Positions 11,694-41,382 of a DNA stretch of 64,000 bases are shown piece by piece. Numbering within the stretch: the stretch's first letter is position 1; every line of letters begins with the position of its first letter. A program made the translations under genes and the position numbers. The notes under the pieces are model-generated. The model was not told where the DNA came from, ran no database searches, and worked only from the letters and a program-made list of their open reading frames with translations. The stretch is from Thermodesulfovibrionia bacterium (GTDB lineage: Bacteria; Nitrospirota; Thermodesulfovibrionia; UBA6902; BMS3Bbin08), in NCBI GenBank assembly GCA_030694425.1, contig JAUXYI010000063.1, forward strand, positions 57,150 to 121,149. Direction: 5' to 3'.

Positions 11694-12475
11694 ATGAGAA
11701 AGATTTTACTCGCATTCCAGTTTTTGACAATTATTCCTGTAAAGGAGATGAAAGATGTCTCTGAGAAAGAGATAGGGGGCGCTTCTGCTTTCTTTCCTTT
11801 AATAGGCTGGATTCAGGGGGCTTTATTTGTGGTATCAGCGGTTTTATTCTTAAAGATTTTCCCTCCAGAATTGGTAAATGGACTTCTTATCCTTGTAATT
11901 GTTACAACCAGCGGCGGTCTTCACCTTGACGGGCTTGCAGATACCTTTGATGCAGTTGCCTCAAAAGGAGATAGGGAAAAGAAGCTTTCTGTTATGAAAG
12001 ACAGCACAATCGGCCCTGTAGGTGTAATTGCGATAGTTCTGGCATTGCTTCTTAAATTCCTTGCCTTGAATAGTCTTTTTCACTATTCACTATTCACTAT
12101 TCACTATTTCTGATGCCTGTTTTTTCGCGATGGGTAATGGTTACAGCAATTTTTCACGGTAAATCAGCAAGACAGGACGGCATTGGAAAGATATTTATTG
12201 AAAATACAAAATTAAAGGAATTAGTGATAGCGACCCTGTTAGTTATTGGCTGCTGGTTATTAGTTGTTAGCTTCTTATTGTCTTCACTATTCACTATTCA
12301 CTATTCACTGTTTTTAGTGTCTATACCTGTACTTTACATCTTCAGTCTCGTATCAGTTTGGTTCTGCAATAAAAAATTTGGCGGTATGACAGGAGATACA
12401 TTCGGGGCGGTTTCCGAAATTTCAGAGATATTATTTTTGATAATGGCGGTAATATGCTCACAAGACTTTATTTAA
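11679..12475 (+). pseudogene. cobS: adenosylcobinamide-GDP ribazoletransferase (cobalamin synthase), split by a frameshift inside a (CACTATT)x4 tract at 12081-12108
   Basis: ORFs 11679..12113 and 12113..12475 together cover the full CobS homology (GLHLDGLADT...MKDS.IG then SRW...GGMTGD). The frame changes exactly within the heptamer array. A 5-copy or 2-copy array would restore the frame. Confidence 0.7.
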
Positions 12476-19771: not shown

Positions 19772-19829
19772 TAAATAAAAAGTTCAAAAATGGGAAGTAA
19801 GAAGCAGAAATAAAAAAATCAAGGGAATA

Positions 19830-19980
19830 AAAACGAGGAAAGGGGTGAGAATCCCCTGCTGTCCCGCAGCCGTAAAGGGAACGAAAACCCAACAGAAGTC
19901 ACTGTGCCGAATCTTCGACATGGGAAGACGGGTAAGTAGGCAGCCCTGAGCCGGAAGACCGTTTGTTCCCGCAACCTCGA
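19830..19980 (+). promoter_or_regulatory. cobalamin riboswitch (variant)
   Basis: GTGAGAATCC, CCCGCAGCCGTAAAGGGAA, GTCACTGTGCC, GGGAAGACGG, GCCGGAAGACCG. Upstream of the outer-membrane protein / cbiMNQO block. Confidence 0.55.
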
Positions 19981-19996
19981 CGGAAGGAGAAAAAAA

Positions 19997-20782
19997 ATGA
20001 TTAAGAAAGTTTTTACAATGATTGTAATCGTATTATGGTATGGAGCGGCGTTTGCTGCTCACCCGCTTATAACTGATGACACCGGGTCACAGGGCAAAGG
20101 GAAATTATTGATTGAGATGAATAGTGAATTCACACATAACAAAGAAACAGAAGAAGATGTAATCATCAAAGAGACCGGCGGTGAGGTGGCAGCAATACTG
20201 TCCTACGGAATTACAGACAATGCAGATATTGTTTTGGGACTTCCGTATCAATGGTCAAAAACTAAAGAAGATGGAGAAACGACCTCGGACGAGGACGGCG
20301 TATCAGATATGTCTTTGGAAATCAAATGGAGGTTTTTTGAAAAAGAAGGTTTAAGCCTCGCGTTAAAACCGGGGCTTACTCTGCCCACAGGCGATGAAGA
20401 AAAAGGATTAGGCAATGGAAGGGCGTCATACGGGCTTAATTTCATAACAACAAAAGAGGTTAAGCCGTGGGCATTTCATCTTAATGTTGCCTATACACAT
20501 AATGAATATAAATTGGAAGCAGACAAAGATGCCAATAGGAAAGACATATGGCATGTATCCCTTGCGACCGAAGTAGAGGTTGTAAAAAATCTCAGACTTG
20601 TTGCAAACGCCGGTATGGAAAGGAATGCCAATAAGGAATTACATACACATCCTGCATTTATTCTCGGAGGGTTTATATATTCTGTATCAGAAAGGCTTGA
20701 TGTGGATTTCGGCGTCAAAGCCGGAATTAATAAATCTGAAACAGACTATACAATTCTTGCAGGACTTGCGAGGAGGTTTTAA
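19997..20782 (+). CDS. outer-membrane beta-barrel protein (MetA-pathway/transporter-like family)
   Basis: Signal peptide and alternating amphipathic strands. Confidence 0.45.
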   Translation: MIKKVFTMIVIVLWYGAAFAAHPLITDDTGSQGKGKLLIEMNSEFTHNKETEEDVIIKETGGEVAAILSYGITDNADIVLGLPYQWSKTKEDGETTSDEDGVSDMSLEIKWRFFEKEGLSLALKPGLTLPTGDEEKGLGNGRASYGLNFITTKEVKPWAFHLNVAYTHNEYKLEADKDANRKDIWHVSLATEVEVVKNLRLVANAGMERNANKELHTHPAFILGGFIYSVSERLDVDFGVKAGINKSETDYTILAGLARRF

Positions 20783-21547
20783 ATGAAAAATGAAAAATCA
20801 TCCCGAATAAGTCGGGACAAAATTCTTTTACTTGTCACTTGTTACTTGTCACTTGTCACTGACGCGCATGCTATGCATATTTCAGAAGGCATTTTGCCGT
20901 TCAACTGGGCAGCCTTATGGTTTGCGGTTGCATTACCCTTTGTCGCTTATGGCTTATACAGGTTAAAAAAACTTTCTGCTGTTGACCTGTCGTTCAAGCC
21001 GCTCGTCGGCCTTATGGCTGCGATAGTGTTTGTAATATCCTGCATGCCGATTCCTGTGCCAACAGCAGGGACATGTTCCCATCCTGGAGGTACGGCAATT
21101 CCGGCAATATTGGTTGGTCCCTCTATTAGTGTTCTCGTTACAGCAGTTGCGCTTCTTATTCAGGCTCTTTTTCTTGCTCACGGCGGATTGAGCACCTGGG
21201 GAGCAGATATAGTCTCCATGGGAGTGATGGGAGCTTTTACAGGTTTTGCTGTCTTTAGGCTCCTGAGAAGATTTAATTTGAGCCTTGCAGTCTCAGGATT
21301 CTTTGCGGGTATCCTTTCTGACTGGGCTATATATCTCACAACCTCTGTTCAGCTCGCATCAGGCATAAGAGGTGATGAGCCTTTTACGCCGCTATTTACA
21401 AAGATAGTCATTGCCTTTGTTCCAACACAGCTTCCGCTTGGCATCCTTGAGGGAGCCATGACAGCAGGCATGGTCGTACTGCTTTACAAAAAGAGACCTG
21501 ACTTGCTTGTGAAGATGAAGGTATTAAAGCCAGAGGAGGCAATATGA
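20783..21547 (+). CDS. cbiM: cobalt ECF transporter S component
   Basis: AHA then MHISEGILP. The N-terminal leader is built from a minihairpin and a (CTTGTCA)n repeat. Confidence 0.85.
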   Translation: MKNEKSSRISRDKILLLVTCYLSLVTDAHAMHISEGILPFNWAALWFAVALPFVAYGLYRLKKLSAVDLSFKPLVGLMAAIVFVISCMPIPVPTAGTCSHPGGTAIPAILVGPSISVLVTAVALLIQALFLAHGGLSTWGADIVSMGVMGAFTGFAVFRLLRRFNLSLAVSGFFAGILSDWAIYLTTSVQLASGIRGDEPFTPLFTKIVIAFVPTQLPLGILEGAMTAGMVVLLYKKRPDLLVKMKVLKPEEAI

Positions 21548-21978
21548 AAAAACAGATTGGTTTGGCGGGATTTTTCAGACGCATTTTCGTCATTCCGCAC
21601 TTGATGCGGAATCCAGTCTTTTTTCTGGATTCCCGCTTTCGCGGGAATGACGCCTATCGGAACAGGATACACTATGGAATAACCATTTTAATTTTATCTG
21701 TTCTCGTCACTTGTCACTTCTCACTTGTCACTGCCGCCGAGTGGGGTGGTGTTGACGAATCAGTTGTGGAGAAATATGCAAAGGAGCACGGCAGGGAGGC
21801 AAGAGAGCCCTTGATAAACACTGATCAGGGAGACTTGCTTCTATTTGTGTTTTTGCTCGCAGGCGCCATCGGAGGATTTGCAGCGGGGTATTACTGGAGG
21901 GTGCTGACAGAGAACAGAGCAGAAAGCAGTAAAAACAGAACAAACACTTACGAGCCTTTAGCTCAAAAAAAGGAGTAG
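21544..21978 (+). CDS. cbiN: cobalt transport protein CbiN
   Basis: ATGA overlap with cbiM. C-terminal TDQGDLLLFVFLLAGAIGGFAAGYYW. A palindromic repeat is inserted in frame near the N-terminus. Confidence 0.7.
   Translation: MKKQIGLAGFFRRIFVIPHLMRNPVFFLDSRFRGNDAYRNRIHYGITILILSVLVTCHFSLVTAAEWGGVDESVVEKYAKEHGREAREPLINTDQGDLLLFVFLLAGAIGGFAAGYYWRVLTENRAESSKNRTNTYEPLAQKKE
21588..21650. repeat. GTCATTCCGC...GCGGGAATGAC palindromic element (RFRGND / VIPAKAGIQ-type), in frame in cbiN
   Basis: Read directly. Antisense spurious ORF at 21484..21672. Confidence 0.5.
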
Positions 21979-22055
21979 AAATATAATCCCCTTTCCCCCC
22001 TTTTCTAAAAGGGGGGAAAGGGGGGACTTGAAAACCGTTTTCGGAGCAAAGACAA

Positions 22056-22823
22056 ATGGAAATTTTTTCTGAGCATTTTAACAAAGACAACTTTCTCTCA
22101 AAAATCGACGTGAAGGTGAAGTTGCTCGTTGTACTCTCACTTTTGGTGATGGTGCTGAGTTGCACAAAAATCTTTTTCCCTATACTCATTGCTATGGGCT
22201 GTTTTTTGCTTTGCCTGAAAATGAAAATAGCGCCGCGTGTGCTGCTTCTGAGAATGGCACAGCCTTTATTTTTTGCGTTAGTGATTTTATTGCTGAAGCT
22301 CTTTTTTTCCGGCAAAGACACTATGTTTTCCATCTCACTTCCGACTTCTGACTTCTCACTTCTCACTTTGACAGGTCACAGAGACGGACTCATTGAAGGG
22401 TTAAAGATCACAAGCAGAATACTCGGCGGGGTATCGCTTGTAATGGCATTTGGATTTGCCACACCTTTTGCCGAAATCCTTGCAGGACTTTCATGGCTCA
22501 GGCTGCCGAAGCAGTTCATTGAAATAACAATGTTTGCCTACAGATATATTTTCATGTTTCTTGAAGATGCGCACACTATCTACAATGCGCAGAAAAATCG
22601 TCTTGGTTATTCGGGAATGAGAAAAGGCATGAAGTCCTTCGGCACACTTGCAGGTTCGCTCGTGATAAGGGGATTTGACCAGAGCCAGAAGACATCCGAG
22701 GCAATGATCCAACGCGGATACACAGGGGATATGCCTATGATAGATGGAAGACCATTGAGATTCGGTGAAGTCTTTTTTGCTGCGATATTCGTGTTTTTTG
22801 CAGGTGCAGTATGGATGATTTAA
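22056..22823 (+). CDS. cbiQ: cobalt ECF transporter T component
   Basis: CbiQ pattern. In-frame (CTTCTCA)n at 22340-22375. Confidence 0.8.
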   Translation: MEIFSEHFNKDNFLSKIDVKVKLLVVLSLLVMVLSCTKIFFPILIAMGCFLLCLKMKIAPRVLLLRMAQPLFFALVILLLKLFFSGKDTMFSISLPTSDFSLLTLTGHRDGLIEGLKITSRILGGVSLVMAFGFATPFAEILAGLSWLRLPKQFIEITMFAYRYIFMFLEDAHTIYNAQKNRLGYSGMRKGMKSFGTLAGSLVIRGFDQSQKTSEAMIQRGYTGDMPMIDGRPLRFGEVFFAAIFVFFAGAVWMI

Positions 22824-23788
22824 AAAGAACACAGAACACAGAACACAGACTAAAGACTAAAGATAACCCTCCCATCCCCTCCTTATTTAAGGGGGGGCAA
22901 AGGGGGGTTACCGCAAAGGGAAGTGAGGGGGGATTTAGGAATGCTTTGTCGGTTGAGAAACTCTCATACAAGTACCCTGACGGGACGTCTGCGTTGACTG
23001 ATATTACCTTTAATGTAAGGAAAGGTAAGTTTATCGGACTGCTTGGAGCAAACGGCTCCGGGAAAACAACGCTTCTTCGCGCGATGGATGGACTTATGAA
23101 GAACTTTGAAGGCGGTGTTTATCTGGAAGGGATTGATATAAGAAAGCTCACGCCGAAGCAGATTTACAAAAAGATCGGGCTTGTGTTTCAAAACCCCGAT
23201 GACCAGCTCTTTGCGCCCACTCTCTTTGAGGATGTTGCCTTCGGTCCTTTGAATATGGGTTTTGACGCAGGAGAAGTTAAGAAAAGGGTATTAAATGCCT
23301 TAAATGAAGTTGAGCTTACAGGTCTTGAAAAAAAATCCGTTCACAATCTGAGCTTTGGTCAGAGGAAGCGCGCGTGCATCGCAGGACTTCTTGCGATGGG
23401 ACATGAAATGCTTTTGCTTGATGAACCGACAGCGGGGCTTGACCCGATGGGCGAATACAGGATGATGAAGCTGCTTCAGAAATTGAACAAAGAAAACGGC
23501 GTGACAATTGTCATGGCGACTCACAGCGTGGACCTTGTGCCTCTTTTTCTTGATGAGCTTTACATCCTGAGTAAAGGCAGAATCACAAGAGGCGGCACAC
23601 CGGAGGAGGTGTTTAATGCGCCTGAAGATATGTCAAATGTTAAACTCAGGCTTCCCCACATCGCAGAGCTGATTTATAAACTGAAGCATGAAGATAAACT
23701 GGACTTTGAACGTATTCCCCTCACTATTGGTGAGGCAAGAAGGGAGATCCTGAAAATATATACATACAGAAAAGGTGATGGAAGATGA
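22811..23788 (+). CDS. cbiO: cobalt ECF transporter ATPase
   Basis: Walker A GANGSGKTT, signature LSFGQRKR, Walker B LLLDEP. N-terminal 40 aa derive from a heptamer array plus a C/G hairpin. Confidence 0.85.
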   Translation: MDDLKRTQNTEHRLKTKDNPPIPSLFKGGQRGVTAKGSEGGFRNALSVEKLSYKYPDGTSALTDITFNVRKGKFIGLLGANGSGKTTLLRAMDGLMKNFEGGVYLEGIDIRKLTPKQIYKKIGLVFQNPDDQLFAPTLFEDVAFGPLNMGFDAGEVKKRVLNALNEVELTGLEKKSVHNLSFGQRKRACIAGLLAMGHEMLLLDEPTAGLDPMGEYRMMKLLQKLNKENGVTIVMATHSVDLVPLFLDELYILSKGRITRGGTPEEVFNAPEDMSNVKLRLPHIAELIYKLKHEDKLDFERIPLTIGEARREILKIYTYRKGDGR

Positions 23789-24570
23789 AGAAAATATATC
23801 TTATTGGAATTGGGACTGGGAAGCTTGATTACTTGACTCTCCAGGCAATAGACACCATGAAAAAAGTAGACGTATTCTTTCTCCTTGAAAAAGAAGGAGA
23901 GAGGAAGAAAGAGTTTCTTAAGATAAGAAAGGAGATATTAGAAAGATGTCGGGATAGGGGGACATATAGGGTTGTAACTGCAAAGATTCCTAAAAGGAGA
24001 AAAAGCGGTAAGTCATATAAGGAAGGGGTTAAGACATGGCGTCAACAAAAAGCAGAAGTTATGACTGGATTGATTAAAGACAAGATGAAAGATAGTGAAA
24101 GCGGTGCCTTTCTTGTCTGGGGCGATCCCTCTCTGTATGATGGGCATTTAGAAATTTTACAGCATATTCTTAAAGAAGGAAGAATAAATTTTGAGTATGA
24201 GGTGATACCAGGAATTACTAGCGTTCAGGTGTTAACCGCCAAGCATAAAATCCCTTTAAACCGTATCGGGGAGACTATTGTGATTACAACAGGCAGAAGA
24301 CTGAAAGAATACTCCCCTGTCGAGATTAGAAATACTGTAGTATTGTTAGACTCTTATTCTACCTTTAAGCATTTTAAGGATGCAGATATTGACATCTATT
24401 GGGGGGGATATCTAGGGAGTAAGGATGAAATTCTCCTTTCAGGGAAGTTAAAGGACATAATTGAGGAGCTTAAAAAGATAAGAAGTGAGGCTAAAAAGAA
24501 AAAAGGTTGGCTCATGGATACATATATTTTAAGACGATCAGAATACTTGGGAAATAGCACAGAAGAATAG
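23785..24570 (+). CDS. tetrapyrrole methylase family protein, CobF (precorrin-6A synthase)-like
   Basis: IYLIGIGTG...VDVFFLLEKEG...GDPSLYDG. Family-level call only. Confidence 0.45.
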   Translation: MKKIYLIGIGTGKLDYLTLQAIDTMKKVDVFFLLEKEGERKKEFLKIRKEILERCRDRGTYRVVTAKIPKRRKSGKSYKEGVKTWRQQKAEVMTGLIKDKMKDSESGAFLVWGDPSLYDGHLEILQHILKEGRINFEYEVIPGITSVQVLTAKHKIPLNRIGETIVITTGRRLKEYSPVEIRNTVVLLDSYSTFKHFKDADIDIYWGGYLGSKDEILLSGKLKDIIEELKKIRSEAKKKKGWLMDTYILRRSEYLGNSTEE

Positions 24571-24586
24571 TTTGTGCTTATAAGTT

Positions 24587-25858
24587 GTGAGTATGACTAA
24601 AATTCATGTCATAGGCATTGGCTATAAACCACTTGATAAAGGTGCAAGGGAAGTTATCTTGAATTCATCAGTCATCCTTGCGTCCAACAGGCTTTTTGAA
24701 GTTTTTCAGGGATATAAGGAATATGAAAAAGTGAAAGATAAAGTAAAAGTGATAAACAATGTAGATGAGACAATAAAATTCATTCACTCGTCACTCGTTA
24801 CTCGTCACTCGTCACTCATCACACTTCTTGCCTCCGGAGACCCGCTTTTTTTTGGTATCGGTAGAAGGGCTGTGAGAGAATTTGGAAAAGACATCGTGAA
24901 AATACTGCCTGATCTATCATCTATTCAGATGGCATTTGCAAAGATAAAAGAACCGTGGGATGATGCATTCCTCATGAGCCTTCATGGCGGCCCTGACCCG
25001 ACAAAAAGAAGGAAGCTGAAATATGAACTAAGTGACATTTCTGAACTACTCGCTAAACATAATAAAATTGCTATCCTGACTGACAAAGAAAATAACCCTC
25101 AGAAGATTGCACAGGTTCTTAACTTGTCACTTGTCACTCGTCACTCGTCACTTATTATGTTTGTCTGTGAACGGCTCGGTTATCCTGATGAGAAAATAAC
25201 AGAAGGAACACCTGAGGAAATTACAAAGATAGAGTTTTCAGACCCAAATGTTGTGATAATTCAGAGCACAGAACACAGAACACTTAACACAGACTTAAAA
25301 TTTGGATTAACAGAAAGCGAAATTCTTCATTCTAAGGGACTCATAACAAAGGACGAGGTCAGAGCTGTAACAATTCAAAAATTAAGGCTCCCGCAAAAGG
25401 GCATATTCTGGGATATTGGTGCTGGCTCTGGATCAGTATCAATAGAAGTAGCAAGGCTTTATCCTGAATTAAAAGTTTTTGCCATCGAAAGAGACGAAGA
25501 ACAGGTTAATCATATCAAGGAAAACATGATTAGACGCAACACATCTAATATTGAAATAATAAAAGGTGATGCCCCTGAAACCCTGGCAAATCTTCCACAT
25601 CCGGACAGAGTATTTATAGGAGGAAGCGGTGGAAGGATTAAAGAGATAATAGAATTTGTGAGCAATAAGATATCGTCTGGAGTCATCGTAATAAATGCCA
25701 CTACAATAGAGACACTGAATGGGGCAGTTCAACATCTTGAGAACAATGCATTTAATGTGGGAGTCTCTGAAATTTCTGTTTCCAGAGCAAAAACCGTGGG
25801 TGGCAAAAGACACATGAGTGCTTTAAATCCTGTATTTATTATAACAGGAGAAAGATAG
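24587..25858 (+). CDS. cbiET: precorrin-6Y C5,15-methyltransferase (decarboxylating), CbiE-CbiT fusion
   Basis: N-terminal methylase domain plus C-terminal SAM methyltransferase (DIGAGSGS). Three in-frame insertions. Confidence 0.85.
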   Translation: MSMTKIHVIGIGYKPLDKGAREVILNSSVILASNRLFEVFQGYKEYEKVKDKVKVINNVDETIKFIHSSLVTRHSSLITLLASGDPLFFGIGRRAVREFGKDIVKILPDLSSIQMAFAKIKEPWDDAFLMSLHGGPDPTKRRKLKYELSDISELLAKHNKIAILTDKENNPQKIAQVLNLSLVTRHSSLIMFVCERLGYPDEKITEGTPEEITKIEFSDPNVVIIQSTEHRTLNTDLKFGLTESEILHSKGLITKDEVRAVTIQKLRLPQKGIFWDIGAGSGSVSIEVARLYPELKVFAIERDEEQVNHIKENMIRRNTSNIEIIKGDAPETLANLPHPDRVFIGGSGGRIKEIIEFVSNKISSGVIVINATTIETLNGAVQHLENNAFNVGVSEISVSRAKTVGGKRHMSALNPVFIITGER

Positions 25859-25860
25859 AA

Positions 25861-26685
25861 ATGACAGGCAAACTGTATGTGGTGGGCGTAGGTCCCGGAG
25901 ACCCCGAACTGCTGACACTAAAGGCAGTGCGGATTCTCAGGGAAGTTAAGTGCATCTGTGTTCCAAAGAGCAGGGAAGAAGGAAGCAGTCTTGCATTATC
26001 CATTGTTAAAAAAGCTATTAACATTGATGGCAAAGAGATCATAGAGGCATATTTTCCAATGAGAAAGACAAAAGACAGTAACAAGTCGCAAGTAACGAGT
26101 AACGAGTTAAAGAATAAAAAATATCCTGAAGACTTGTCACTCGTCACTGAGCCTGCCCTGAGCTTGTCGAAGGGTCACTCGTCACTGCCTTTGGATTGCG
26201 AACTGGATACGAAATGGCAGGAAACAATAGATGCCGTTTATAGCAGACTGGATAAAGGAATTGATACGGCTTTTATCACTATCGGAGATCCTACAATATA
26301 CAGCACCTTTTTTTATCTCCATGATGGACTCCTTGATCTCAATCCAGAATTAAATATAGAAATAATTCCAGGAGTATCTTCCATAAATGCCTCTGCCTCA
26401 AGGGCAAAAATATCCCTCAGTCTTGCTGATGAAAGGATTGCCATACTTCCAGCGAATTACACGACTGACTTAAAGAATGCATTAGAAAGGTTTGATACCG
26501 TTGTGCTTATGAAGGTTCATAAAGTGTTCAGAAATATATTAAATGTCTTAAATGAAACAGAACTCCTGAATAAAGCAGTCTATATTTCAAAGGTGGGTAT
26601 GGAAGATGAAAGGATAATCAAAAATATCAGAGATGTAAAAGAAGAAGACCTCAATTACTTTTCAATGGTGATAATAAGGAAATGA
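25861..26685 (+). CDS. cbiL: precorrin-2 C20-methyltransferase
   Basis: LYVVGVGPGDPELLTLKA...GDPTIYSTF. Insertion at 26080-26200. Confidence 0.8.
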   Translation: MTGKLYVVGVGPGDPELLTLKAVRILREVKCICVPKSREEGSSLALSIVKKAINIDGKEIIEAYFPMRKTKDSNKSQVTSNELKNKKYPEDLSLVTEPALSLSKGHSSLPLDCELDTKWQETIDAVYSRLDKGIDTAFITIGDPTIYSTFFYLHDGLLDLNPELNIEIIPGVSSINASASRAKISLSLADERIAILPANYTTDLKNALERFDTVVLMKVHKVFRNILNVLNETELLNKAVYISKVGMEDERIIKNIRDVKEEDLNYFSMVIIRK

Positions 26686-27437
26686 GCAAGGTCTATTTCA
26701 TAAGTGCAGGGCCTGGCGCCCCTGAGTTAATAACAATCAAGGGTAGAAAACTCCTTGATAATGCCAATGTAGTAATTTATGCAGGAAGCCTTGTGAATCC
26801 TGAACTCTTAAACAACATAAAGGCAGAAATATTTGATTCGTCAAAACTTACCCTCAATGAAATAATAAAGATTATAAAAGACTCAATAGATAAAGATAAG
26901 ATGGTTGTAAGGCTGCACACAGGTGACACCTCTTTATACAGTGCCATATCAGAGCAGATAGAAAGGCTCCGCGAATTGAACATAGATTATGAAGTCATTC
27001 CAGGGGTTTCTTCTGCAATGGCCGGTGCAGCAATACTGGGACAGGAACTCACCATTCCTGAGATAAGCCAGACTGTCATATTTACACGCCTTGAAGGAAG
27101 GACTCCTGTACCTGAAACCGAAAAGCTCAGTGAGTTGGCTAAACACAAAGCAACGATGGTGATATTTTTGAGTGCAGGAATGAGTGAAAAGTTAAGAGAC
27201 GAATTACTAAAAAGCTATCCAGAAGATACGCCTGTGGTGATAATTGAGAAGGTATCCTGGCCGGAACAGAAAATTATAAGAGGCAGACTAAAAAATATTG
27301 TTGAATTGATTAAAACTGCCAATATAAAAAGGACTGCACTTATATATGTTGGTGAGGCTTTAAGGGCATCGGAAGAATCGTTGGGCAAAAAATCAAAGCT
27401 CTACAACAAAGACTTTACACATGAATACAGAAAATAA
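26682..27437 (+). CDS. cbiF: precorrin-4 C11-methyltransferase
   Basis: VYFISAGPGAPELITIKG. No insertion. Confidence 0.85.
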   Translation: MSKVYFISAGPGAPELITIKGRKLLDNANVVIYAGSLVNPELLNNIKAEIFDSSKLTLNEIIKIIKDSIDKDKMVVRLHTGDTSLYSAISEQIERLRELNIDYEVIPGVSSAMAGAAILGQELTIPEISQTVIFTRLEGRTPVPETEKLSELAKHKATMVIFLSAGMSEKLRDELLKSYPEDTPVVIIEKVSWPEQKIIRGRLKNIVELIKTANIKRTALIYVGEALRASEESLGKKSKLYNKDFTHEYRK

Positions 27438-29301
27438 AGGCAACAAGACAGAAGTCAGAAGTCAGCCTTCAGCCTTATTTTACATAACAGACAAGGGACT
27501 TATGCTTGCCAAAAAGCTCAAAGAACTTTTCCCTAATTCACAGATGGTGAAATTTAAATCAGAGGCTGTTTCTGAGGTCTGGAGCGAGTGCAAAAATCTA
27601 ATATTCATCATGGCAGCAGGAATTGTTGTCAGGACTATCGCCCCCTTAATAAAAGGCAAAAGGACAGATCCTGCTGTTGTTGTGCTGGACGAGAAAGGGG
27701 AATATGCAATCAGCCTTTTAGGTGGACATCTTGGAGGTGCAAATAAGATTGCAAAGGAGATTGCTGATTTCTTAGGAGGCAGAGCGGTAATAACAACAGC
27801 ATCTGATGTAAATAATCTGCCAGCCATAGATTTATGGGCAAGAGAAAATAATTTAGTGGTAGAAAATTGGGATTTGCTGCCGAAAATTGGTACGCTGCTT
27901 TTAAACAAGGGTTTTTTGAAAGTCTATGCGGATATAGGTATTAAATTGACTGACAAATTACAAAAAACAGACAATCCTGAAACTGCTGACATCCTTATTA
28001 CAAACAAAAACAACCTGTTTGCTCATACACCCATTCATCTTTATTTAAGACCCAAAAATCTTATTATTGGTATTGGCTGTAACAGCGGAACATCAGCAGA
28101 TGAAATAGAAGACGCTGTTAAAAGTATACTGGCGGAAAACAATCTATCATTTCTATCGGTTTACTCCATAGCGACCATTGATAAAAAAAGCAGCGAGCCT
28201 GGTCTGATTGCATTCACTGAAAAGTATGGTTTTAAGGTTAAAACGTTCACATCCGACGAACTGAATAATGTCAAAGGTGTAGTGAAATCAGAAGCTGCAT
28301 TCAAAGCAACTGGAGCCAAAGCAGTAGCAGAGCCAGCAGCATTACTCGCATCAGGAGCAAAGAAACTGCTTGTGCCAAAACAAAGGATAGGAAATGTCAC
28401 GATAGCAATAGCACTCAAAGGCAGTAACGAGTTACAAGTAACAAGTAACAAGTTAAAAAATAAAGGCTCGTCACTCGTCACTCGTCACTCGTCACTTTAC
28501 ATCGTTGGCACTGGCCCGGGAAGCATTGAACATATTACGCCTTATGCCCAAAATGCAATAAGAAACTCCGATGTTATAGTTGGATACGGCACATATCTTG
28601 AACTAATACAGGAGTTAATTAAGGATAAAGAAGTCGTATCCACAGGCATGACGCAGGAGATAGACAGATGTAAAAGAGCAGTGGAACTGGCAATGTCAGG
28701 AAAAACCGTTTCTATCATAAGTGGTGGAGACCCTGGTATCTATGCCATGGCAGGATTGGTGTTTGAAATATTGAAAAACAGTAACGAGTTACAAGTAACA
28801 AGTAACAAGTCAGTAGAGAGTCGGGAGTCAAAAAACTCGTCACTCGTCACTCGTCACTCGTCACTTATTGATGTTGAGGTTATTCCCGGTATTTCTGCCT
28901 TAAATGCCTGTGCAGCAAGGCTCGGTGCGCCACTCATGCATGATTTTGCATGCATAAGTCTTTCTAACAGGCTTACGTCTTGGGATTTGATAGAAAAAAG
29001 ACTTGAGGCCGCTACAACGGCTGATTTTGTGATTGTGCTTTATAACCCAAAGAGCATGGGCAGGCAGGGGCATATCAATAAGGCAAGGGATATCATCTTG
29101 AGATATAGAACTCCTGAAACACCTGTGGGAATAGTAAAGTCTGCAATGAGGGAGAACGAAAAAATAATCATTACAAATCTTAAAGACATGCTTGACCACG
29201 ATATTGATATGCAGAGCACGGTAATTATCGGGAATTCGCAAACATTTTTATGGGAAGGGTGGATGATAACACCGAGGGGATATGCAAACAAAAAACAGTG
29301 A
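27421..29301 (+). CDS. cbiGH: CbiG fused in frame to precorrin-3B C17-methyltransferase CbiH
   Basis: CbiG homology to about aa 340. A repeat insertion at 28425-28500 replaces the cbiH start. Then LYIVGTGPG...GGDPGIY. Confidence 0.8.
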   Translation: MNTENKGNKTEVRSQPSALFYITDKGLMLAKKLKELFPNSQMVKFKSEAVSEVWSECKNLIFIMAAGIVVRTIAPLIKGKRTDPAVVVLDEKGEYAISLLGGHLGGANKIAKEIADFLGGRAVITTASDVNNLPAIDLWARENNLVVENWDLLPKIGTLLLNKGFLKVYADIGIKLTDKLQKTDNPETADILITNKNNLFAHTPIHLYLRPKNLIIGIGCNSGTSADEIEDAVKSILAENNLSFLSVYSIATIDKKSSEPGLIAFTEKYGFKVKTFTSDELNNVKGVVKSEAAFKATGAKAVAEPAALLASGAKKLLVPKQRIGNVTIAIALKGSNELQVTSNKLKNKGSSLVTRHSSLYIVGTGPGSIEHITPYAQNAIRNSDVIVGYGTYLELIQELIKDKEVVSTGMTQEIDRCKRAVELAMSGKTVSIISGGDPGIYAMAGLVFEILKNSNELQVTSNKSVESRESKNSSLVTRHSSLIDVEVIPGISALNACAARLGAPLMHDFACISLSNRLTSWDLIEKRLEAATTADFVIVLYNPKSMGRQGHINKARDIILRYRTPETPVGIVKSAMRENEKIIITNLKDMLDHDIDMQSTVIIGNSQTFLWEGWMITPRGYANKKQ

Positions 29302-30751
29302 CGAGTTACGAGTAACGAGTAACAAGTCAGTAAAGAGTCGGGAGTCAAAAAACTCGTCACTCGTCACTCGTCACTCGTCACTTAAAAATGATGTTGCCTT
29401 TTTGTGGGATGAGTCTCTTCTATGGGGATTAATGGCATATAAGGCATTGAAGTCACGTAACCTGCCTTTTAATATTATTCGTTCTGCTGATATTAAAAAC
29501 AGGCAACTCAAAAATTACAAAATGCTATTTGTCCCTGGTGGATGGGCATCAAATAAGCTAAAGGCTCTCGGTAAAAAGGGCATCACTGAGATAAAAAGAT
29601 TTGTCAGAGGCGGAGGCAATTACCTCGGTCTTTGCGGCGGTGCAGGGCTTGCAACTCAGGAGAGTGTAGGACTCTTAAATGTCAGGAGAAGACCTACAAA
29701 GAACCGCGTCCCGAGCTTCAGCGGGAAGATATATCTAAATATAAGTGAGCATCCTATCTGGAATGGTTTGGTTGGAGGAAACAGCAATGAAAATAGTGCA
29801 AATACGGTAATTCAAAATAACTCATCACTCATCACTCCCCGGCCTCGTCCCGAAGCGTCGGGACGGGGCGGGCATTACTCGTCACTGCCTTTTCATGCCT
29901 GGTGGCCATCGCAATTTTTAGTAGAGGATAAGGGTATAAAGGTACTTGCTATATTTGGAGGCGCCTTACCGGATTCTTTCAGCTCTGACCTAAATATCGG
30001 GGATGTAGAGGCAGATGGCAGTTGGGCTGAACTTGAAAAAATCTATAAGATAAATCTTAATCCTGAAAAACTTATAAACGAGCCTGCTGTTCTGGAAGGC
30101 AGTTATGGACTTGGTAAAGTAATTTTATCACTTATCCATTTTGATACCACTCAGGACAGGAATGGTGCTGAGGTTTTAAAAAATCTATGGGAATATCTCG
30201 CAGGACAGAAGACAGAAGTTAGGAAGATAAGAAATTGGGAAGATAAGAGCCTCTCAACTTCTCAACTTATAGGCTCCAAAACAAACCTGTCACTGCTCAA
30301 GGAACTTGAAATGTTAGTTGATGAGTTGATTTCCCTCGGCGAACGGAATTTCCTCTGGTTCTGGCGAAACCCAATGCTTCTTCAGTGGCGGAGGGGAGTA
30401 AGGGGGCTTGAATACTGCACGCTGTATGTGATGATAAAAGAGATTACCGCAATACTTAAAAATGGACAAGTAGCGAAAGCCAGGGGACAAAGAAACATTG
30501 AATTATTAATTGGAGATAGCTTGGGGAGAATCAGGAGATTGCTTATACCATTTATAGAAAAAACCAAACGCTTACTAATCATGGAAAGGTATGCCTTACA
30601 GAATGGACATATCACCTATGAGAGATGTGATAGTCCAGAGATTCAGAAATTAAGGTGTGAACTTTTCTCCACCTCAAAAAGCCATGGAGGATTGTTCAAA
30701 AAACTTATTGATGAAGTGGACAAAGTTTTGTATAGTTTGTTGATTAACTAA
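29282..30751 (+). CDS. class-I glutamine amidotransferase-like (BPL_N-type) domain protein
   Basis: LFVPGGWASN...GGGNYLGLCGGAGLA. N-terminus sits in a repeat element. Second insertion at 29815-29890. Confidence 0.35.
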   Translation: MQTKNSDELRVTSNKSVKSRESKNSSLVTRHSSLKNDVAFLWDESLLWGLMAYKALKSRNLPFNIIRSADIKNRQLKNYKMLFVPGGWASNKLKALGKKGITEIKRFVRGGGNYLGLCGGAGLATQESVGLLNVRRRPTKNRVPSFSGKIYLNISEHPIWNGLVGGNSNENSANTVIQNNSSLITPRPRPEASGRGGHYSSLPFHAWWPSQFLVEDKGIKVLAIFGGALPDSFSSDLNIGDVEADGSWAELEKIYKINLNPEKLINEPAVLEGSYGLGKVILSLIHFDTTQDRNGAEVLKNLWEYLAGQKTEVRKIRNWEDKSLSTSQLIGSKTNLSLLKELEMLVDELISLGERNFLWFWRNPMLLQWRRGVRGLEYCTLYVMIKEITAILKNGQVAKARGQRNIELLIGDSLGRIRRLLIPFIEKTKRLLIMERYALQNGHITYERCDSPEIQKLRCELFSTSKSHGGLFKKLIDEVDKVLYSLLIN

Positions 30752-30813
30752 GAGTTCTTTAAGTTTTTGAAGGATTTTGTAGCACAACTTAACAAAGGAA
30801 GGAGGTGAAAAAA

Positions 30814-30966
30814 ATGGAAAAGAAAAAAAATAAAACCACAAACAAGAAGGAGTCAAGGACAAAACCAGATGTTATTTCTTATCACCTGAAATGCGCAAAG
30901 ACAGCTAACGGATTAACTCATTTTGTAATGTACGGAGATGTGGCAAAGAAACAGATGCCATTGTAA
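30814..30966 (+). CDS. small Lys-rich peptide (50 aa), candidate precursor or partner of downstream radical SAM/SPASM enzyme
   Basis: Strong ribosome-binding site AGGAGGTG 7 nt upstream of the ATG. Sequence MEKKKNKTTNKKESRTKPDVISYHLKCAKTANGLTHFVMYGDVAKKQMPL. Confidence 0.35.
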   Translation: MEKKKNKTTNKKESRTKPDVISYHLKCAKTANGLTHFVMYGDVAKKQMPL

Positions 30967-31042
30967 GATGGGCTTAAAACCTGAACGGTTTGGATAGTTC
31001 AGGCTGTTCAAACCGTTCAAGCTATTTAAACAGATTAAGTCT

Positions 31043-31137
31043 GTCATTCCCGTGAAAACGGGAATCCAGAGAGGTTAAAGGTATTTCTGGATTCCTGCTG
31101 GAGTTTATCCCGTACTTAGATACGGGGCAGGAATGAC
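31043..31137. repeat. GTCATTCCCG...CAGGAATGAC palindromic element
   Basis: Same family as 21588 and 41715. Confidence 0.5.
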
Positions 31138-31165
31138 AATACAAATAAAAAGAAGGAGGAATATC

Positions 31166-32509
31166 ATGAGTAAAAACCACAGGGAGCTTTCGTTTTCTGA
31201 TATTGATGATAAGTGGAAGTTGGCACTTGATCCTGACAACATTTTTTGGGGAGTAATAACCAAAAATAATGGAAATTTTTTATTGCCTGATGACTTGATT
31301 GACCTTTACAAAAAAGAACGGAAACATCTTGATTCCGAGATTCATGATTTCAGATTTAATACTGATTTAAACTGCATATATATTGACCCCACTGACAGGT
31401 GTAATGCCAATTGTACTTACTGTTATATTCCCTCAAAAATAAGAAAACACGGCGTACAGATGGATAGTAAACAATTAGACTCTCTATTAAAAAAGATTGC
31501 CGCTTATTTTAAAAATTCAAAAAAGAAGCCGGTAATTGTTTTTCATGCGGCTGAGCCTTTACTGGTAAAAAATATCCTTTTTGATGCAATACATAGATTC
31601 CGCAGTCAATTTCTTTTTGGACTTCAGACTAACGCACTCTTGCTTGAAAAAACGGATGTGGAGTTTTTAAAGAAACACCGAGTAGGCGTTGGTATATCGC
31701 TTGATTCTCCGGATGCTGATATAAATAACCGACAGCGGGTAAGTGTAAGAGATGGAGGCAATTTTGAAAAAGCGGTACAGGCGATTAAGTGGTTCAATGG
31801 TTATGAGGGATTAAATGTAATCACAACTGTTACAAAACACAATGTCAGCCAGTTGTCAGATTTGGTGAAATTTTTTCATGCAAAAAAAGTTAGCTGCGTA
31901 CTTTTTAACCCGGTCAGATTAACCCAAAAACCTTCATTAAACCTGAAACCTGATGAAAAAGTGTTTGCTGAATATTTTATCACTGCTGTTGAAAAGGCAA
32001 TAGAGTTATCAAAAAAATCAGGTCGCCAGATTGTAATAGGTAATTTTGCAAATGTAATACTTGCAATAATATCACCGACTGCCAGACGGATGATGTGCGA
32101 TATATCCCCTTGCGGAGGAGGCCGCACTTTTATGACAGTTACTGCTAACGGCGATATGGTTCCGTGCGGAGAATTTATTGGTTTGAAAGAATTTGCAGGC
32201 GGAAATATTTTTGAGACATCAATTTCAGAGGCTATGAACTCCGAGTCGTTTAAGAAAATCAGGGCAAGGATTGTGGAAAAAATTGATGAATGCAATGTAT
32301 GTGATTTCAGAAATATATGCGGTGCGCCATGTCCTGCAGAATTACATGCACGAGGCAATATGTACCAAAAAGCAGAATTCTGCGAATTCTATAAAGAGAT
32401 AATAAGATATGCCTTTAAATTAATAGCTGAAGATAAGGTTAAATATCTTCTTCGGGAAGATGCGATACAGCAGCTTAAGTATGAGTATAAATATTCTGAT
32501 AGAAATTAA
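31166..32509 (+). CDS. radical SAM/SPASM domain protein (anSME or peptide-maturase-like)
   Basis: CNANCTYC (Cx3Cx2C). C-terminal SPASM cysteines CGGGRTF...CNVCDFRNICGAPCP. AGGAGG ribosome-binding site before the ATG at 31166. An 85-aa N-terminal extension precedes the radical SAM core. Confidence 0.8.
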   Translation: MSKNHRELSFSDIDDKWKLALDPDNIFWGVITKNNGNFLLPDDLIDLYKKERKHLDSEIHDFRFNTDLNCIYIDPTDRCNANCTYCYIPSKIRKHGVQMDSKQLDSLLKKIAAYFKNSKKKPVIVFHAAEPLLVKNILFDAIHRFRSQFLFGLQTNALLLEKTDVEFLKKHRVGVGISLDSPDADINNRQRVSVRDGGNFEKAVQAIKWFNGYEGLNVITTVTKHNVSQLSDLVKFFHAKKVSCVLFNPVRLTQKPSLNLKPDEKVFAEYFITAVEKAIELSKKSGRQIVIGNFANVILAIISPTARRMMCDISPCGGGRTFMTVTANGDMVPCGEFIGLKEFAGGNIFETSISEAMNSESFKKIRARIVEKIDECNVCDFRNICGAPCPAELHARGNMYQKAEFCEFYKEIIRYAFKLIAEDKVKYLLREDAIQQLKYEYKYSDRN

Positions 32510-32563
32510 TTGTAGCCGCAGACTTTAGTCGGCGTTCTTAAACTGTGATTGACAGTTCAAATA

Positions 32564-32778
32564 GGTATTCCAGAGGAATCTCGTGAAAAACGAGAACTGC
32601 CCCGCAACTGTAAAGGGAGCGAAAACCTAAAAAGGCAGTGAAGAGTAAACAGTGAATAGTTAAGAGTTACAGAATTCAAAAACTTTTAACTTTCAACTGC
32701 TTTTAAGTCACTGTCCCGAAGCGTCGGGACGGGAAGGCAGGTGAGTAGAGAGCCCTAAGTCAGGAGATTCCGAATACC
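32564..32778 (+). promoter_or_regulatory. cobalamin riboswitch with no downstream gene (orphan)
   Basis: P1 GGTATTC...GAATACC. GTGAAAAACGAG, CCCCGCAACTGTAAAGGGAGC, GGGAAGGC, AGTCAGGAGA. Next plus-strand product is only a 6-aa ORF. Confidence 0.6.
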
Positions 32779-32868
32779 TTTTAAAAACCAATACCCTTCG
32801 AGGGAAGAGGAGGCAACATGAGAAATAACACATCGTAAAATTAGTCAATCCAAACGCATAGATAAAGT

Positions 32869-32959: not shown

Positions 32960-33343
32960 TTATTGTTTTGAGGAGTATTTCTTAAACCATTCAACGATAT
33001 TTTCCAATGAGACTTTGCATGTAGCCACCTTAATGGTAAATAGCTCAAGTTCGTTCTGTGTGGTTTTGAGATAATAACCATTTATCTGAAGAAAAATACC
33101 TGCAGATGTTATGGCAGTTCTCTTATTCCCATCAATGAAGGGGTGATTTTTTATGAGAGATTCCATCAAGGCAGCAGCTTTATGGCAGATATCGGGATAT
33201 AGATCTTCGCTCCCGAATGTTGCTTTTGGCCTTGAGACAGCAGATTGAAGAAGCCCCAAATCCCTGATGCCGTGAGAGCCGCCTGTTTCATCAATGAGCC
33301 TGCTGTGAATAAAGAGAACCTGCTCTGCAGTAAGGTATCTCAC
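32960..33343 (-). CDS. doc: Fic/Doc family toxin (death-on-curing)
   Basis: HPFIDGNKR motif. Confidence 0.8.
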   Translation of the reverse strand: MRYLTAEQVLFIHSRLIDETGGSHGIRDLGLLQSAVSRPKATFGSEDLYPDICHKAAALMESLIKNHPFIDGNKRTAITSAGIFLQINGYYLKTTQNELELFTIKVATCKVSLENIVEWFKKYSSKQ

Positions 33344-39505: not shown

Positions 39506-40255
39506 TTATAGGTTATTTACAACAATATCCTCCAATAAACCTTCAGTCAGCATTTTCAAATTGAGAAGATATTCTATATGATTAAATGTTTCTTCTAACG
39601 GTCTGCTTGTCGATTGCCAACCGATTCCGTCAGTGATCCAGACAAATTTATGCCTATCCTTTGTAAGAAAATCATAAAGAGCCTTGTATTCCCCCGCAGT
39701 AGATTTAAGTTTTGAACCTCCACCGCCATAGTAGTTTGTTTCTATAAGATAAAGTGACTTGCCATTATATACGGCAAAATCGAATCGTCTGCTTGATTTA
39801 TCAACTCCGAGTTTTAGTCCCCACTGTTCTAAAACTTTTTCAGCAGTTGCTTCTTTAATATATTTAAAATCGTGACTGGTACAAATCTCTTTTACAAAAT
39901 TTTCTGTAACTTTTTCCATGGCTGTTCCGCCACGGTTTTTCCGTCCATTGCTATCGAGCCCGACTTCAATTCCTATTGTGTAATCAACAACATTTTTAAT
40001 AGTTTTGTCTTTGAATATTTTCAACAAACCACTTTTTTGAGCAAAACGGACAGCTTTTGAAATTTCGGGATCGGAAAGATTTTTCTTCTCCTCAAATGAA
40101 AAATCTTCATACTTAAGATTCCCCTCAGAAAGATCTGTGAGGATTTTAAACTTATTCTCTCTACATGCAAGAAGGACAGGAATTAATCTCACAATCTGTG
40201 GATGCTTTTTTAAGAGATAGCCAAACTCTTTTTGGATATTTTCTTTACCGATCAA
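39506..40255 (-). CDS. type II restriction endonuclease, DpnII/MboI family (GATC-type predicted)
   Basis: VDYTIGIEVGLDSNGRKNRGG...IETNYYGGGGSKL...FVWITDGIGW matches the DpnII family. The annotated TTG start lacks about 60 aa of family N-terminal homology. That homology continues in frame up to about 40430, with no ATG or GTG, and overlaps the methyltransferase 3' end. Confidence 0.7.
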   Translation of the reverse strand: MIGKENIQKEFGYLLKKHPQIVRLIPVLLACRENKFKILTDLSEGNLKYEDFSFEEKKNLSDPEISKAVRFAQKSGLLKIFKDKTIKNVVDYTIGIEVGLDSNGRKNRGGTAMEKVTENFVKEICTSHDFKYIKEATAEKVLEQWGLKLGVDKSSRRFDFAVYNGKSLYLIETNYYGGGGSKLKSTAGEYKALYDFLTKDRHKFVWITDGIGWQSTSRPLEETFNHIEYLLNLKMLTEGLLEDIVVNNL

Positions 40256-40449
40256 ATAGTTAAGAATATTTAAGTCTACCTCTAAGTCTTTAGTATTACC
40301 AATAACTTTTTTCCAATTTACAAAATAATCCCAATATCTTATAGAATCGTTGAGATTGTTTATGAGGTAAGCAAAAACTTCCGTTGTGTTATTACAGTCG
40401 ATTTTCTTTTTTAATATAGAATAATATTTAATCTGCTTTCGACCTTTTT

Positions 40450-41382
40450 TTAATCTGGTAAGTTGGTTACTTTATTTTCAATTGCTTCTTCCAATCTTTT
40501 CTTAGAAAGCTGAAGATATTCCTCCTCCAACTCAATCCCAACATATTTTCTATTAAGTAGAACTGCTGCTACGCCTGTTGTTGAACTGCCACAAAACGGG
40601 TCTAAAACCAAGTCGCCTTCTTTTGTAGAGGCTTGAATTATTCTTTTTAAAAGCTCTACTGGTTTTTGTGTTGGATGTTTCCCAAACTTTTTTTCCTCGG
40701 CTGGTGGAGCTGAAATTTCCCACACATTGCGCATTTGTTTACCGTTATTCATTTTTTTCATCAATTTATAATCAAAGTAATGTTTGCTCTTTTCATTCTT
40801 TGCTGCCCATAAAACTATCTCTGTGGAATGGGTAAAGTATCTGCATGAAAGATTTGGTGGAGCATTACGTTTATACCAGATGATATCATTGAGAATTTTG
40901 TATCCGAGTTCCTGCATGGCAAAACCAACTAAGTAAATAATGTGTGTTGTTCCAGATACCCAAATAGTGCCGTTAGGTTTTAAAACTCGTTGACAAGCCT
41001 TTAACCATTCAAGAGTAAATTTGTGATTTTCTTCTATGCCTTTTGACTTATCCCATTTTCCTTTATTAACAGACACCATTTTCCCTGCATGGCAAGTAAT
41101 ACCTCCGTTGGAAAGACAATAAGGCGGGTCGGCAAAGATCATGTCAACACTGTTTTCTCTTGCCTGATTAAGTATTTCTACACAGTCTCCTTTGAGGAGT
41201 CTTACCGAATGTTCAGGATTGTCATAATAACGGGTAAATAGTTTTTTCTTCCCATAGATTGCTGTTTCTTCGGAGATATAGAATTCAATAGGATTTACTT
41301 TATAGCTATGGATTAATTCCCTTTTTTTCTTTGCTGATAATACCGGGGACTTATTACTTTTTTTTCTTTTCATTAATTTCAT
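40450..41382 (-). CDS. beta-class DNA methyltransferase (N6-adenine/N4-cytosine; DpnA/MboIB-like)
   Basis: Motif IV DPPY (IFADPPYCLSNGG) precedes motif I (DPFCGSSTTG). Confidence 0.85.
   Translation of the reverse strand: MKLMKRKKSNKSPVLSAKKKRELIHSYKVNPIEFYISEETAIYGKKKLFTRYYDNPEHSVRLLKGDCVEILNQARENSVDMIFADPPYCLSNGGITCHAGKMVSVNKGKWDKSKGIEENHKFTLEWLKACQRVLKPNGTIWVSGTTHIIYLVGFAMQELGYKILNDIIWYKRNAPPNLSCRYFTHSTEIVLWAAKNEKSKHYFDYKLMKKMNNGKQMRNVWEISAPPAEEKKFGKHPTQKPVELLKRIIQASTKEGDLVLDPFCGSSTTGVAAVLLNRKYVGIELEEEYLQLSKKRLEEAIENKVTNLPD

Follow-up and report, generated by a model that had tools for sequence, protein, structure and literature searches.

The CbpA/CbpB family of peptide and radical S-adenosylmethionine (SAM) enzyme is catalogued but unstudied, having been defined by bioinformatics alone. 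The enzyme is described by the NCBIfam model TIGR04163 (rSAM_cobopep, CbpB), and the peptide is described by TIGR04164 (cobo_pep, "modified peptide precursor CbpA"), a 25-position profile with a cutoff of 35 bits. Here, we describe a pair of adjacent genes in a 64,000-nucleotide stretch of a Thermodesulfovibrionia bacterium genome (hereafter, the window; contig JAUXYI010000063.1 of assembly GCA_030694425.1), in which a small, lysine-rich open reading frame (ORF) precedes a radical SAM/SPASM enzyme at the end of a cobalamin operon. The two genes are very probably cbpA and cbpB, and these names are used throughout. The window enzyme is already annotated as CbpB, and the peptide belongs to a divergent branch of CbpA. 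We consider it likely that the pair yields a B12-repressed intracellular peptide that is oxidatively cross-linked by CbpB. The window itself is an ordinary instance of the family; its broader interest lies in anaerobic B12 biosynthesis, which is generally treated as enzymatically complete.

Family assignment and anatomy of CbpB

The enzyme falls firmly within TIGR04163, scoring 514 bits against a cutoff of 375 (E = 2.8e-154) over profile positions 5-426 of 428. Its mechanically called ORF opens at 31133. The true start is the ATG at 31166, as indicated by the AAGGAGG ribosome-binding site upstream (Table 1), the N termini of homologues, and an identical deposited protein of 447 amino acids. 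The latter, GenBank MDP3297642.1 from a Thermodesulfovibrionia metagenome-assembled genome (MAG), matches from that methionine onward and is named "peptide-modifying radical SAM enzyme CbpB."

The Cx3Cx2C motif of the enzyme reads CNANCTYC and comprises C79, C83, and C86, encoded by TGT codons at 31400, 31412, and 31421. Pfam recognizes both the Radical_SAM domain (62.8 bits) and the SPASM domain (41.2 bits), and eight further cysteines, from C311 to C406, lie in the C-terminal SPASM region (32096-32383). In alignment numbering, from which 3 is subtracted to obtain numbering from Met 31166, these are C314, C319, C337, C379, C382, C388, C392, and C409. The Cx3Cx2C motif and all eight SPASM cysteines are invariant among 132 homologues, while the mean column identity of CbpB is 73% across 24 Nitrospirota-type homologues and 54% across the broader set of 132. 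Eight cysteines suffice for two fully Cys-ligated auxiliary [4Fe-4S] clusters, as in the anaerobic sulfatase-maturating enzyme (anSME). The original prediction, which was made from the window sequence, had described a radical SAM protein with a Cx3Cx2C motif and SPASM auxiliary-cluster cysteines, and the motif, the Pfam matches, and the invariant cysteines confirm that description.

The families that follow TIGR04163 are peptide-modifying SPASM enzymes or anSME, all at 130 bits or less. They include DynA (128 bits; cutoff, 450), PapB (NF047865; 120.5 bits; cutoff, 340), HxsB (115 bits; cutoff, 370), QhpD-type enzymes (104 bits; cutoff, 453), cyclophane synthases (93-102 bits; cutoffs, 310-445), and the SCIFF maturase (TIGR03974; 83 bits; cutoff, 425). 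The heme b synthase AhbD is matched at 68 bits (E = 9e-19; cutoff, 500). Among relatives of solved structure, the best by sequence is CteB (E = 1.2e-23), in an alignment that starts at profile residue 74 and CteB residue 101. TigE, SuiB, SkfB, and PqqE rank further down among the structural matches.

The enzyme had been credited with an 85-residue extension ahead of the radical SAM core that could serve as a precursor-recognition domain. The extension is real, although it measures 78 residues from the start ATG to the first cluster cysteine rather than about 85-90. A structure model built from 24 sequences was poor for the N-terminal and SPASM parts (pLDDT, the predicted local distance difference test score, of 64) and was redone with 132 sequences, reaching a pLDDT of 90.9. 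In this model, the N-terminal domain (residues about 8-65) consists of strands 12-15, 20-25, and 30-35 followed by one long helix, 45-68. A canonical recognition element (RRE) of ribosomally synthesized and posttranslationally modified peptides (RiPPs) is a winged helix with a three-stranded sheet followed by three helices. No PqqD/RRE match was found in Pfam at E <= 10, either for full-length CbpB or for 28 isolated N-terminal domains, and a profile of the domain found no chain in the PDB at E <= 10. The N-terminal domain is highly conserved, with an F, a W, and an FRF invariant, and is therefore functional; a role as a peptide-docking element is plausible. The extension is present and conserved, but it is not recognizable as an RRE: neither Pfam nor the PDB profile search supports that identity, and the fold (three strands and one helix versus three strands and three helices) resembles one only in part.

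Conservation of the small gene

The product of cbpA, MEKKKNKTTNKKESRTKPDVISYHLKCAKTANGLTHFVMYGDVAKKQMPL, has 50 amino acids, 11 of them lysine, and a single cysteine at position 27. The length and coordinates of the ORF, its lysine richness, its strong ribosome-binding site, and its single cysteine had all been predicted and were all confirmed from the sequence. The product is identical to GenBank MDP3297641.1 (Thermodesulfovibrionia MAG), which is named "hypothetical protein."

With one genome scanned per GTDB species, at least 591 coding stretches related to CbpB were detected, and the best 80 loci (53-75% identity; 2-9 kb fetched for each) were kept. These 80 loci span about ten phyla and come from Nitrospirota/Thermodesulfovibrionia, Omnitrophota, Planctomycetota, Bacillota, Hydrogenedentota, Firestonebacteria, Deferribacteres-labelled and deltaproteobacterial MAGs, and the archaeon Candidatus Hydrothermarchaeum. 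When the 50-residue peptide was used as a tblastn query, a peptide ORF was found directly 5' of cbpB and on the same strand in 75 of the 80 loci, confirming that the two genes are co-conserved in related genomes. Most of these 75 ORFs are preceded by a AAAGGAGGTGA context, and each locus carries one precursor copy. Five loci lack a detected cbpA, three of which have less than 400 nucleotides of upstream sequence.

The core of the peptide is nearly fixed across these loci and reads (I/V)SY(H/R)(L/M)KCAKTANGL(T/S)HFVMYGD(V)PKK.., while the N-terminal 15-30 residues differ in length and sequence; most lineages are lysine rich here, and a few are acidic. Across 75 sequences with the core pattern, the nucleotide entropy of a 15-codon core is 0.36 bits at the first codon position, 0.25 at the second, and 1.40 at the third. 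Moreover, the invariant core residues use all four glycine codons and six leucine codons, and third positions are saturated. The low entropy at positions 1 and 2 relative to position 3 indicates that the core is conserved at the protein level, as expected of a translated gene under purifying selection. Together, the conservation of the small ORF and its codon pattern rule out a spurious call.

When 1.84 billion representative proteins were searched exhaustively with a family profile in HMMER, only 22 were recovered at E <= 0.001. In an alignment of 19 of these, the cysteine, the Gly-Leu pair, and the histidine are invariant, and an arginine and a Tyr-Gly pair are nearly so. Short variants without MYGD, which form a minority (loci L071, L075, L076, L079, and L080 and protein P0214), read ...NGLSH(F/Y)VPxEKKxLV. 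For 15 of the 19 diverse relatives, TIGR04164 is the sole NCBIfam match, aligned over the C...GLSH(F/Y) core. These alignments run from the residue before SYR to SH(F/Y)V, at profile positions 1-19, and the short VPxEKK type gives the longest, extending to profile position 23. We infer from these alignments that the clade is a divergent CbpA branch that the curated model misses, and this divergence would account for the "hypothetical protein" labels in public records. The consequence is that a whole Nitrospirota/Omnitrophota-type clade of peptides escapes the curated model; its members are labelled "hypothetical" and in some assemblies may be uncalled. The original reading of the locus as a maturase and precursor of RiPP type was supported, with the enzyme firmly in TIGR04163, the peptide co-conserved, and its relatives matching only TIGR04164, albeit below cutoff.

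Cobalamin operon context

The decisive context, absent from the original prediction, is a cobalamin operon and its B12 riboswitch. The window holds an anaerobic-type cobalamin cluster of two operons, each with a cobalamin riboswitch at its head (Rfam, 89.8 and 71.9 bits). The first operon encodes a BtuF-like fragment, CobU, CobT, CobS, CobC, CobQ, CbiB, CobD, a CbiA-type amidase, and CbiX-CbiC. The second (19997-32509) encodes an outer-membrane protein, CbiM, a small ORF, CbiQ, CbiO, a tetrapyrrole methylase, CbiE/T, another methylase, CbiF, a CbiG-CbiH fusion, a 489-amino-acid BPL_N/GATase-like protein, CbpA, and CbpB. All ORFs of the second operon lie on the + strand with gaps of at most 199 nucleotides, and cbpA and cbpB are its last two genes. 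Terminator-like and promoter-like sites within this operon are not above chance, and consensus scans for a promoter of cbpA's own or a terminator 3' of cbpA gave sites no more numerous than in shuffled sequence. The riboswitch at 19794 is thus predicted to control cbpA and cbpB too.

The association with cobalamin genes extends well beyond the window. Another cob or cbi gene lies on the same strand within the fetched locus in 72 of the 80 loci, yet the immediate 5' neighbor varies (CbiO in 26 loci, CbiB in 11, CobD in 7, and CobT and CobU in 6 each). CbiD, which is absent from the window, is encoded 3' of cbpB in 23 loci. Also, a cobalamin or adenosylcobalamin riboswitch lies directly 5' of cbpA in two loci (L053 and L040). 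An association that survives the reshuffling of neighbors, together with riboswitches directly upstream, speaks for a functional connection with B12 or cobalt physiology and against mere chance proximity. By the same context, a housekeeping intracellular peptide is likelier than a classical secreted RiPP.

Among recurrent gene families beside the pair, defined as clusters seen in at least 2 of the 80 loci, there is no sulfatase, ABC exporter, leader peptidase or protease, or immunity-type gene. Ten of the 80 loci, of Omnitrophota or Planctomycetota type, carry a Diphthami_syn_2 PP-loop ATPase (PF01902; 171.6 bits), which abuts cbpB (or, in L043, cbpA) in 6 of these 10. An Asn_synthase-like gene is present in three loci. 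Both may be lineage-specific extra processing enzymes. The observations on the PF01902 (Dph6-like) and Asn_synthase-like genes come from L054 (2872-3996) and from the neighborhood of cbpB in L043, L045, L062, L063, L075, L076, and L080. The Asn_synthase-like gene, which has a C-terminal zinc ribbon, lies nearby, and in L054 it runs in frame into cbpA without a stop codon, a possible fusion.

The gene directly 5' of cbpA in the window (29282-30751, + strand) encodes the 489-amino-acid protein, which weakly matches BPL_N at 35.7 bits and a CobB/CobQ-type GATase at 18.6 bits (cutoff, 27). It falls in no NCBIfam family and is an uncharacterized member of the cob operon. It was considered as a component of the system and set aside, since outside the window it lies 5' of cbpA only in L018 and L038.

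The cbpA-cbpB spacer

The two genes are separated by 199 nucleotides that fold strongly: positions 30960-31160 have a predicted free energy of -72.6 kcal/mol (z = -6.6 from 200 shuffles), and two stem-loop structures fill most of the gap (Table 1). Strong structure is shared across loci. The cbpA-cbpB spacers of 62 loci have a median z of -6.2, with 79% below -4, compared with a median of -3.7 and 47% below -4 for other spacers in the same loci (Mann-Whitney p = 1.7e-5). Spacer length ranges from about -20 to 454 nucleotides, the sequence is not conserved, and Rfam has no match within the cbpA-cbpB spacer; a conserved RNA element was rejected on these grounds. We read the hairpins as the message-stabilizing or attenuating type that is common after precursor genes.

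One inner hairpin of the spacer (31045-31066, + strand), CATTCCCGTGAAAACGGGAATC, recurs on the - strand at 21628-21649 as GCGAAAGC, with two stem-preserving changes. This second copy sits inside the small ORF between cbiM and cbiQ, which suggests that the inner hairpin is a dispersed hairpin repeat.

Proposed function and alternative explanations

In the reading that we prefer, CbpA is probably the substrate of CbpB. When B12 is scarce, the operon would be transcribed, and cbpA would be translated from its consensus Shine-Dalgarno sequence. The spacer hairpins might then stabilize the cbpA message or damp read-through, leaving the peptide in excess over the enzyme. CbpB would dock the conserved core of the peptide, possibly via its N-terminal β3-α domain, and SAM would be cleaved at the C79/C83/C86 cluster. 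The resulting 5'-deoxyadenosyl radical would take a hydrogen atom within the invariant SY(H/R)(L/M)KC..T.NGL(T/S)H(F/Y)V (Y23-V38), and two fully Cys-ligated auxiliary clusters would take the second electron, closing one oxidative intramolecular cross-link. The short variants without MYGD place any universal modification between Y23 and V38.

The candidate products differ in likelihood. A thioether from Cys27 is the leading candidate, a tentative choice that is favored because the peptide has a single invariant cysteine and because the enzyme resembles CteB, PapB, and QhpD. An aromatic-to-Cβ cyclophane comes next; it is unlikely but is allowed by the similarity to ChlB and the cyclophane families and by the conserved aromatic-x-x triplets. 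A formylglycine-type oxidation of Cys27 is improbable. Whichever product is formed, it would stay in the cell and might serve cobalt or corrinoid metabolism, e.g., as a Cys/His-bearing escort for cobalt or corrin intermediates.

The evidence leans, with some caution, toward a role for the pair in B12 or cobalt physiology. The pair travels with cob genes over about ten phyla, riboswitches lie directly 5' in some genomes, and a core of 15-20 residues is almost invariant; together, these observations suggest that the pair has an as yet unassigned role in the handling of cobalt or corrinoids. More speculatively, and with our confidence falling on the doubtful side, we propose that cross-linked CbpA is an unrecognized peptide component of anaerobic cobalamin metabolism. 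It might act as an escort, a ligand donor, or a redox helper for cobalt or corrin intermediates in many anaerobic phyla and at least one archaeon, under riboswitch repression by B12. In some Omnitrophota and Planctomycetota, further processing by the Dph6-like PP-loop ATPase may occur. Should the peptide prove to function in anaerobic B12 metabolism, a well-studied pathway would gain a notable component.

Several observations weigh against this account. The window peptide has no NCBIfam or Pfam match even at E <= 10, TIGR04164 included, and its relatives stay under the TIGR04164 cutoff (11.9-23.3 bits versus 35; best E = 3.8e-7). Two loci (L046 and L077) have no adjacent cbpA despite at least 660 nucleotides of upstream sequence. 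The N-terminal domain of CbpB contains no recognizable RRE, its fold being only partly reminiscent of one. Many other spacers are structured too, and the genomes are rich in palindromic repeats, so the spacer hairpins may in part be genomic repeats. Coregulation with B12 genes is no proof of a role in B12 synthesis. Finally, a literature search found no published experiment on any CbpA/CbpB and no CbpA modification.

In the alternative that survives best, although we judge it decidedly unlikely, the target of CbpB would be an intermediate of corrinoid or tetrapyrrole type, or some other small molecule from the B12 pathway, and CbpA would be a partner of the enzyme (a scaffold, chaperone, or ligand donor). 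Such a substrate would fit the embedding of the pair in corrin-synthesis operons and the tetrapyrrole modifiers known among SPASM-type enzymes, of which AhbD is matched by CbpB at 68 bits. Cross-phylum conservation of the peptide core, which is unusual for RiPP cores, and an N-terminal domain that is not a canonical RRE also fit. However, peptides or proteins are the substrates of all higher-scoring families and of the three best structural matches (anSME, DynA, PapB, HxsB, QhpD, ChlB, and CteB), the curated family name is "peptide-modifying," and the tight cbpA-cbpB order is typical of precursor and maturase pairs. Moreover, a missing enzyme of this kind is not known for any step in anaerobic corrin synthesis.

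Less probable still is a classical secreted RiPP, such as an antimicrobial or signal of the sactipeptide or ranthipeptide type, whose adjacency to cob genes would be incidental; we regard this as very improbable. The architecture of a small peptide beside a radical SAM/SPASM enzyme suits it, as does CteB as the best sequence match in the PDB, and the variable, charged N terminus of the peptide could be a leader. Against these stand the lack of any recurrent transporter, leader peptidase, or immunity gene in the 80 loci and the single precursor copy at each locus. Furthermore, the core hardly varies from bacteria to an archaeon, unlike antimicrobial cores, which diversify, and the cob association holds despite changing neighbors, with riboswitches directly 5' of cbpA in two loci.

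The earlier note had named an anSME-like function as its alternative. In that case, the enzyme would convert Cys or Ser to formylglycine in a sulfatase encoded elsewhere, and the small ORF would be irrelevant. This reading can be dismissed: anSME is the second-best NCBIfam family and the eight SPASM cysteines could give its two fully Cys-ligated auxiliary clusters, but CbpB scores far under the anSME cutoffs (TIGR03942, 130 bits versus 349; PRK13758, 84 bits versus 441) while reaching 514 bits in its own family, no sulfatase occurs among the Pfam-scanned window ORFs or the recurrent families of the 80 loci, CbpA has C-A-K-T-A in place of the sulfatase motif C/S-x-P/A-x-R, and the co-conserved peptide and cob context would be left unexplained.

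Other features of the window

Coordinates of the principal features are collected in Table 1.

Table 1. Features of the cbpA-cbpB locus and its riboswitch, in window coordinates
Feature	Coordinates	Strand	Remarks
Cobalamin riboswitch (RF00174)	19794-19981	+	Rfam 71.9 bits (gathering score, 31.5); heads 13-gene operon
Ribosome-binding site of cbpA	30800-30807	+	AGGAGGTG, from sequence; 6 nucleotides 5' of ATG
cbpA	30814-30966	+	ATG 30814 to TAA 30966; 50-amino-acid precursor-like peptide
CbpA conserved core Y23-D42	30880-30939	+	N-terminal Lys-rich part variable
CbpA invariant Cys27	30892-30894	+	
CbpA invariant Gly33-Leu34 and His36	30919-30921 (His36)	+	
Stable hairpin	30982-31019	+	Stem of about 17 bp; 16 nucleotides past cbpA stop codon
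Compound stem-loop	31042-31138	+	Closed by TGTCATTCC/GGAATGACA; three inner hairpins; occupies remaining spacer
Ribosome-binding site of cbpB	31153-31159	+	AAGGAGG, from sequence
cbpB	31166-32509	+	Radical SAM/SPASM enzyme, 447 amino acids

A third cobalamin riboswitch (32513-32788, + strand; 49.5 bits) begins 4 nucleotides past the cbpB stop codon and is unusually long at 276 nucleotides. No + strand gene follows it. Downstream is a toxin-antitoxin island (Fic/Doc at 32960-33343, DUF5615, and others) that also holds a DpnII-type restriction-modification system (39506-41382). The same riboswitch lies 3' of cbpB in loci L007, L013, and L018, followed in L007 by a TonB-receptor-like ORF, which suggests that an insertion has orphaned the window copy.

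The cobalamin operons also contain repeats. Heptamer palindromes of the form (GTAACGA)n ... (ACTCGTC)n occur at 17649-17726, 26071-26148, 28417-28494, 28774-28876, and 29291-29393. They lie in frame within the genes for the CbiA-type amidase, a tetrapyrrole methylase, and CbiG-CbiH (twice) and at the start of the BPL_N-like gene. These palindromes encode segments such as ELQVTSNK...SSLVTRHSSL, which orthologues lack (gaps of 28-38 amino acids), and they resemble the in-frame palindromic elements known from Rickettsia.

A second repeat family consists of runs of the heptamer CAGAACA followed by C7...G7 hairpins (AACCCCCCCATCCCCCCC..GGGGGGGCAAAGGGG), with copies at 12612-12662, 14579-14629, 15121-15171, 19381-19431, 22855-22905, 44551-44601, and 47832-47882. 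Several of these copies are inside cob ORFs whose Pfam matches are broken into two or three stretches. The gene for CobS (cobalamin-5-phosphate synthase) is split into ORFs at 11679-12113 and 12113-12475, which cover Pfam positions 1-114 and 118-207, respectively. The break falls at a run of the heptamer TTCACTA (12079-12118) and could reflect a frameshift, a misassembly, or disruption by the repeat. In addition, the riboswitch-controlled operon carries, at 11314-11661 (+ strand) and flanked by cobT and cobS, a member of the "23S rRNA-intervening sequence protein" family (PF05635; 131.8 bits).

Comparison with known systems

The SCIFF/CteB system (PDB 5WGG) resembles the window pair in that a small, highly conserved, housekeeping-type peptide is encoded beside a radical SAM/SPASM enzyme with an extra N-terminal domain. 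However, CbpB reaches only 83 bits on the SCIFF maturase model TIGR03974 (cutoff, 425) and has eight SPASM cysteines, and CbpA has one cysteine, whereas the SCIFF peptide has six. The N-terminal domains differ as well, with about 100 residues in CteB versus 73 in CbpB and no sequence alignment between them.

The cysteine count of CbpB, enough for two fully ligated auxiliary clusters, is shared with anSMEcpe (PDB 4K36-4K39), and in both systems the substrate would offer a single reactive cysteine. CbpB differs in having about 65 extra N-terminal residues and in falling below the family cutoff (130 versus 349 bits). Unlike anSMEcpe, CbpB has no sulfatase or sulfatase motif nearby and has a dedicated peptide partner in cob operons.

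Enzymes that form three-residue cyclophanes (ChlB, PDB 9GM3; GrrM/OscB, YhhB, and AmcB) are matched by CbpB at 93-102 bits in NCBIfam, and the CbpA core conserves aromatic-x-x triplets (Y-H/R-L/M, H-F-V, and Y-G-D). Nevertheless, CbpB is under the cutoffs of these families (310-445), and the invariants of CbpA are the cysteine, Gly-Leu, and the histidine, with no repeated aromatic motif.

PqqA/PqqE and MftA/MftC, which give rise to peptide-derived cofactors, likewise combine a short, highly conserved peptide with a SPASM enzyme and serve primary metabolism rather than antibiotic production. These systems need further conserved genes (a peptidase, an oxidase, and others). No such genes recur beside cbpA and cbpB, except for the PP-loop ATPase (10 of 80 loci) and the Asn_synthase-like gene (three loci). 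Relative to a strict RiPP layout, CbpA is conserved in its C-terminal core and variable at its N terminus, and no protease or exporter recurs in the 80 loci.

Finally, the window pair most closely resembles curated CbpA/CbpB (TIGR04164/TIGR04163) itself: the enzyme is over its cutoff, a small peptide gene lies directly 5', the context is a cobalamin operon, and in relatives the peptide core aligns to the CbpA profile. What sets the window clade apart from curated CbpA is the extra MYGD after SHFV and the lysine-rich N terminus.

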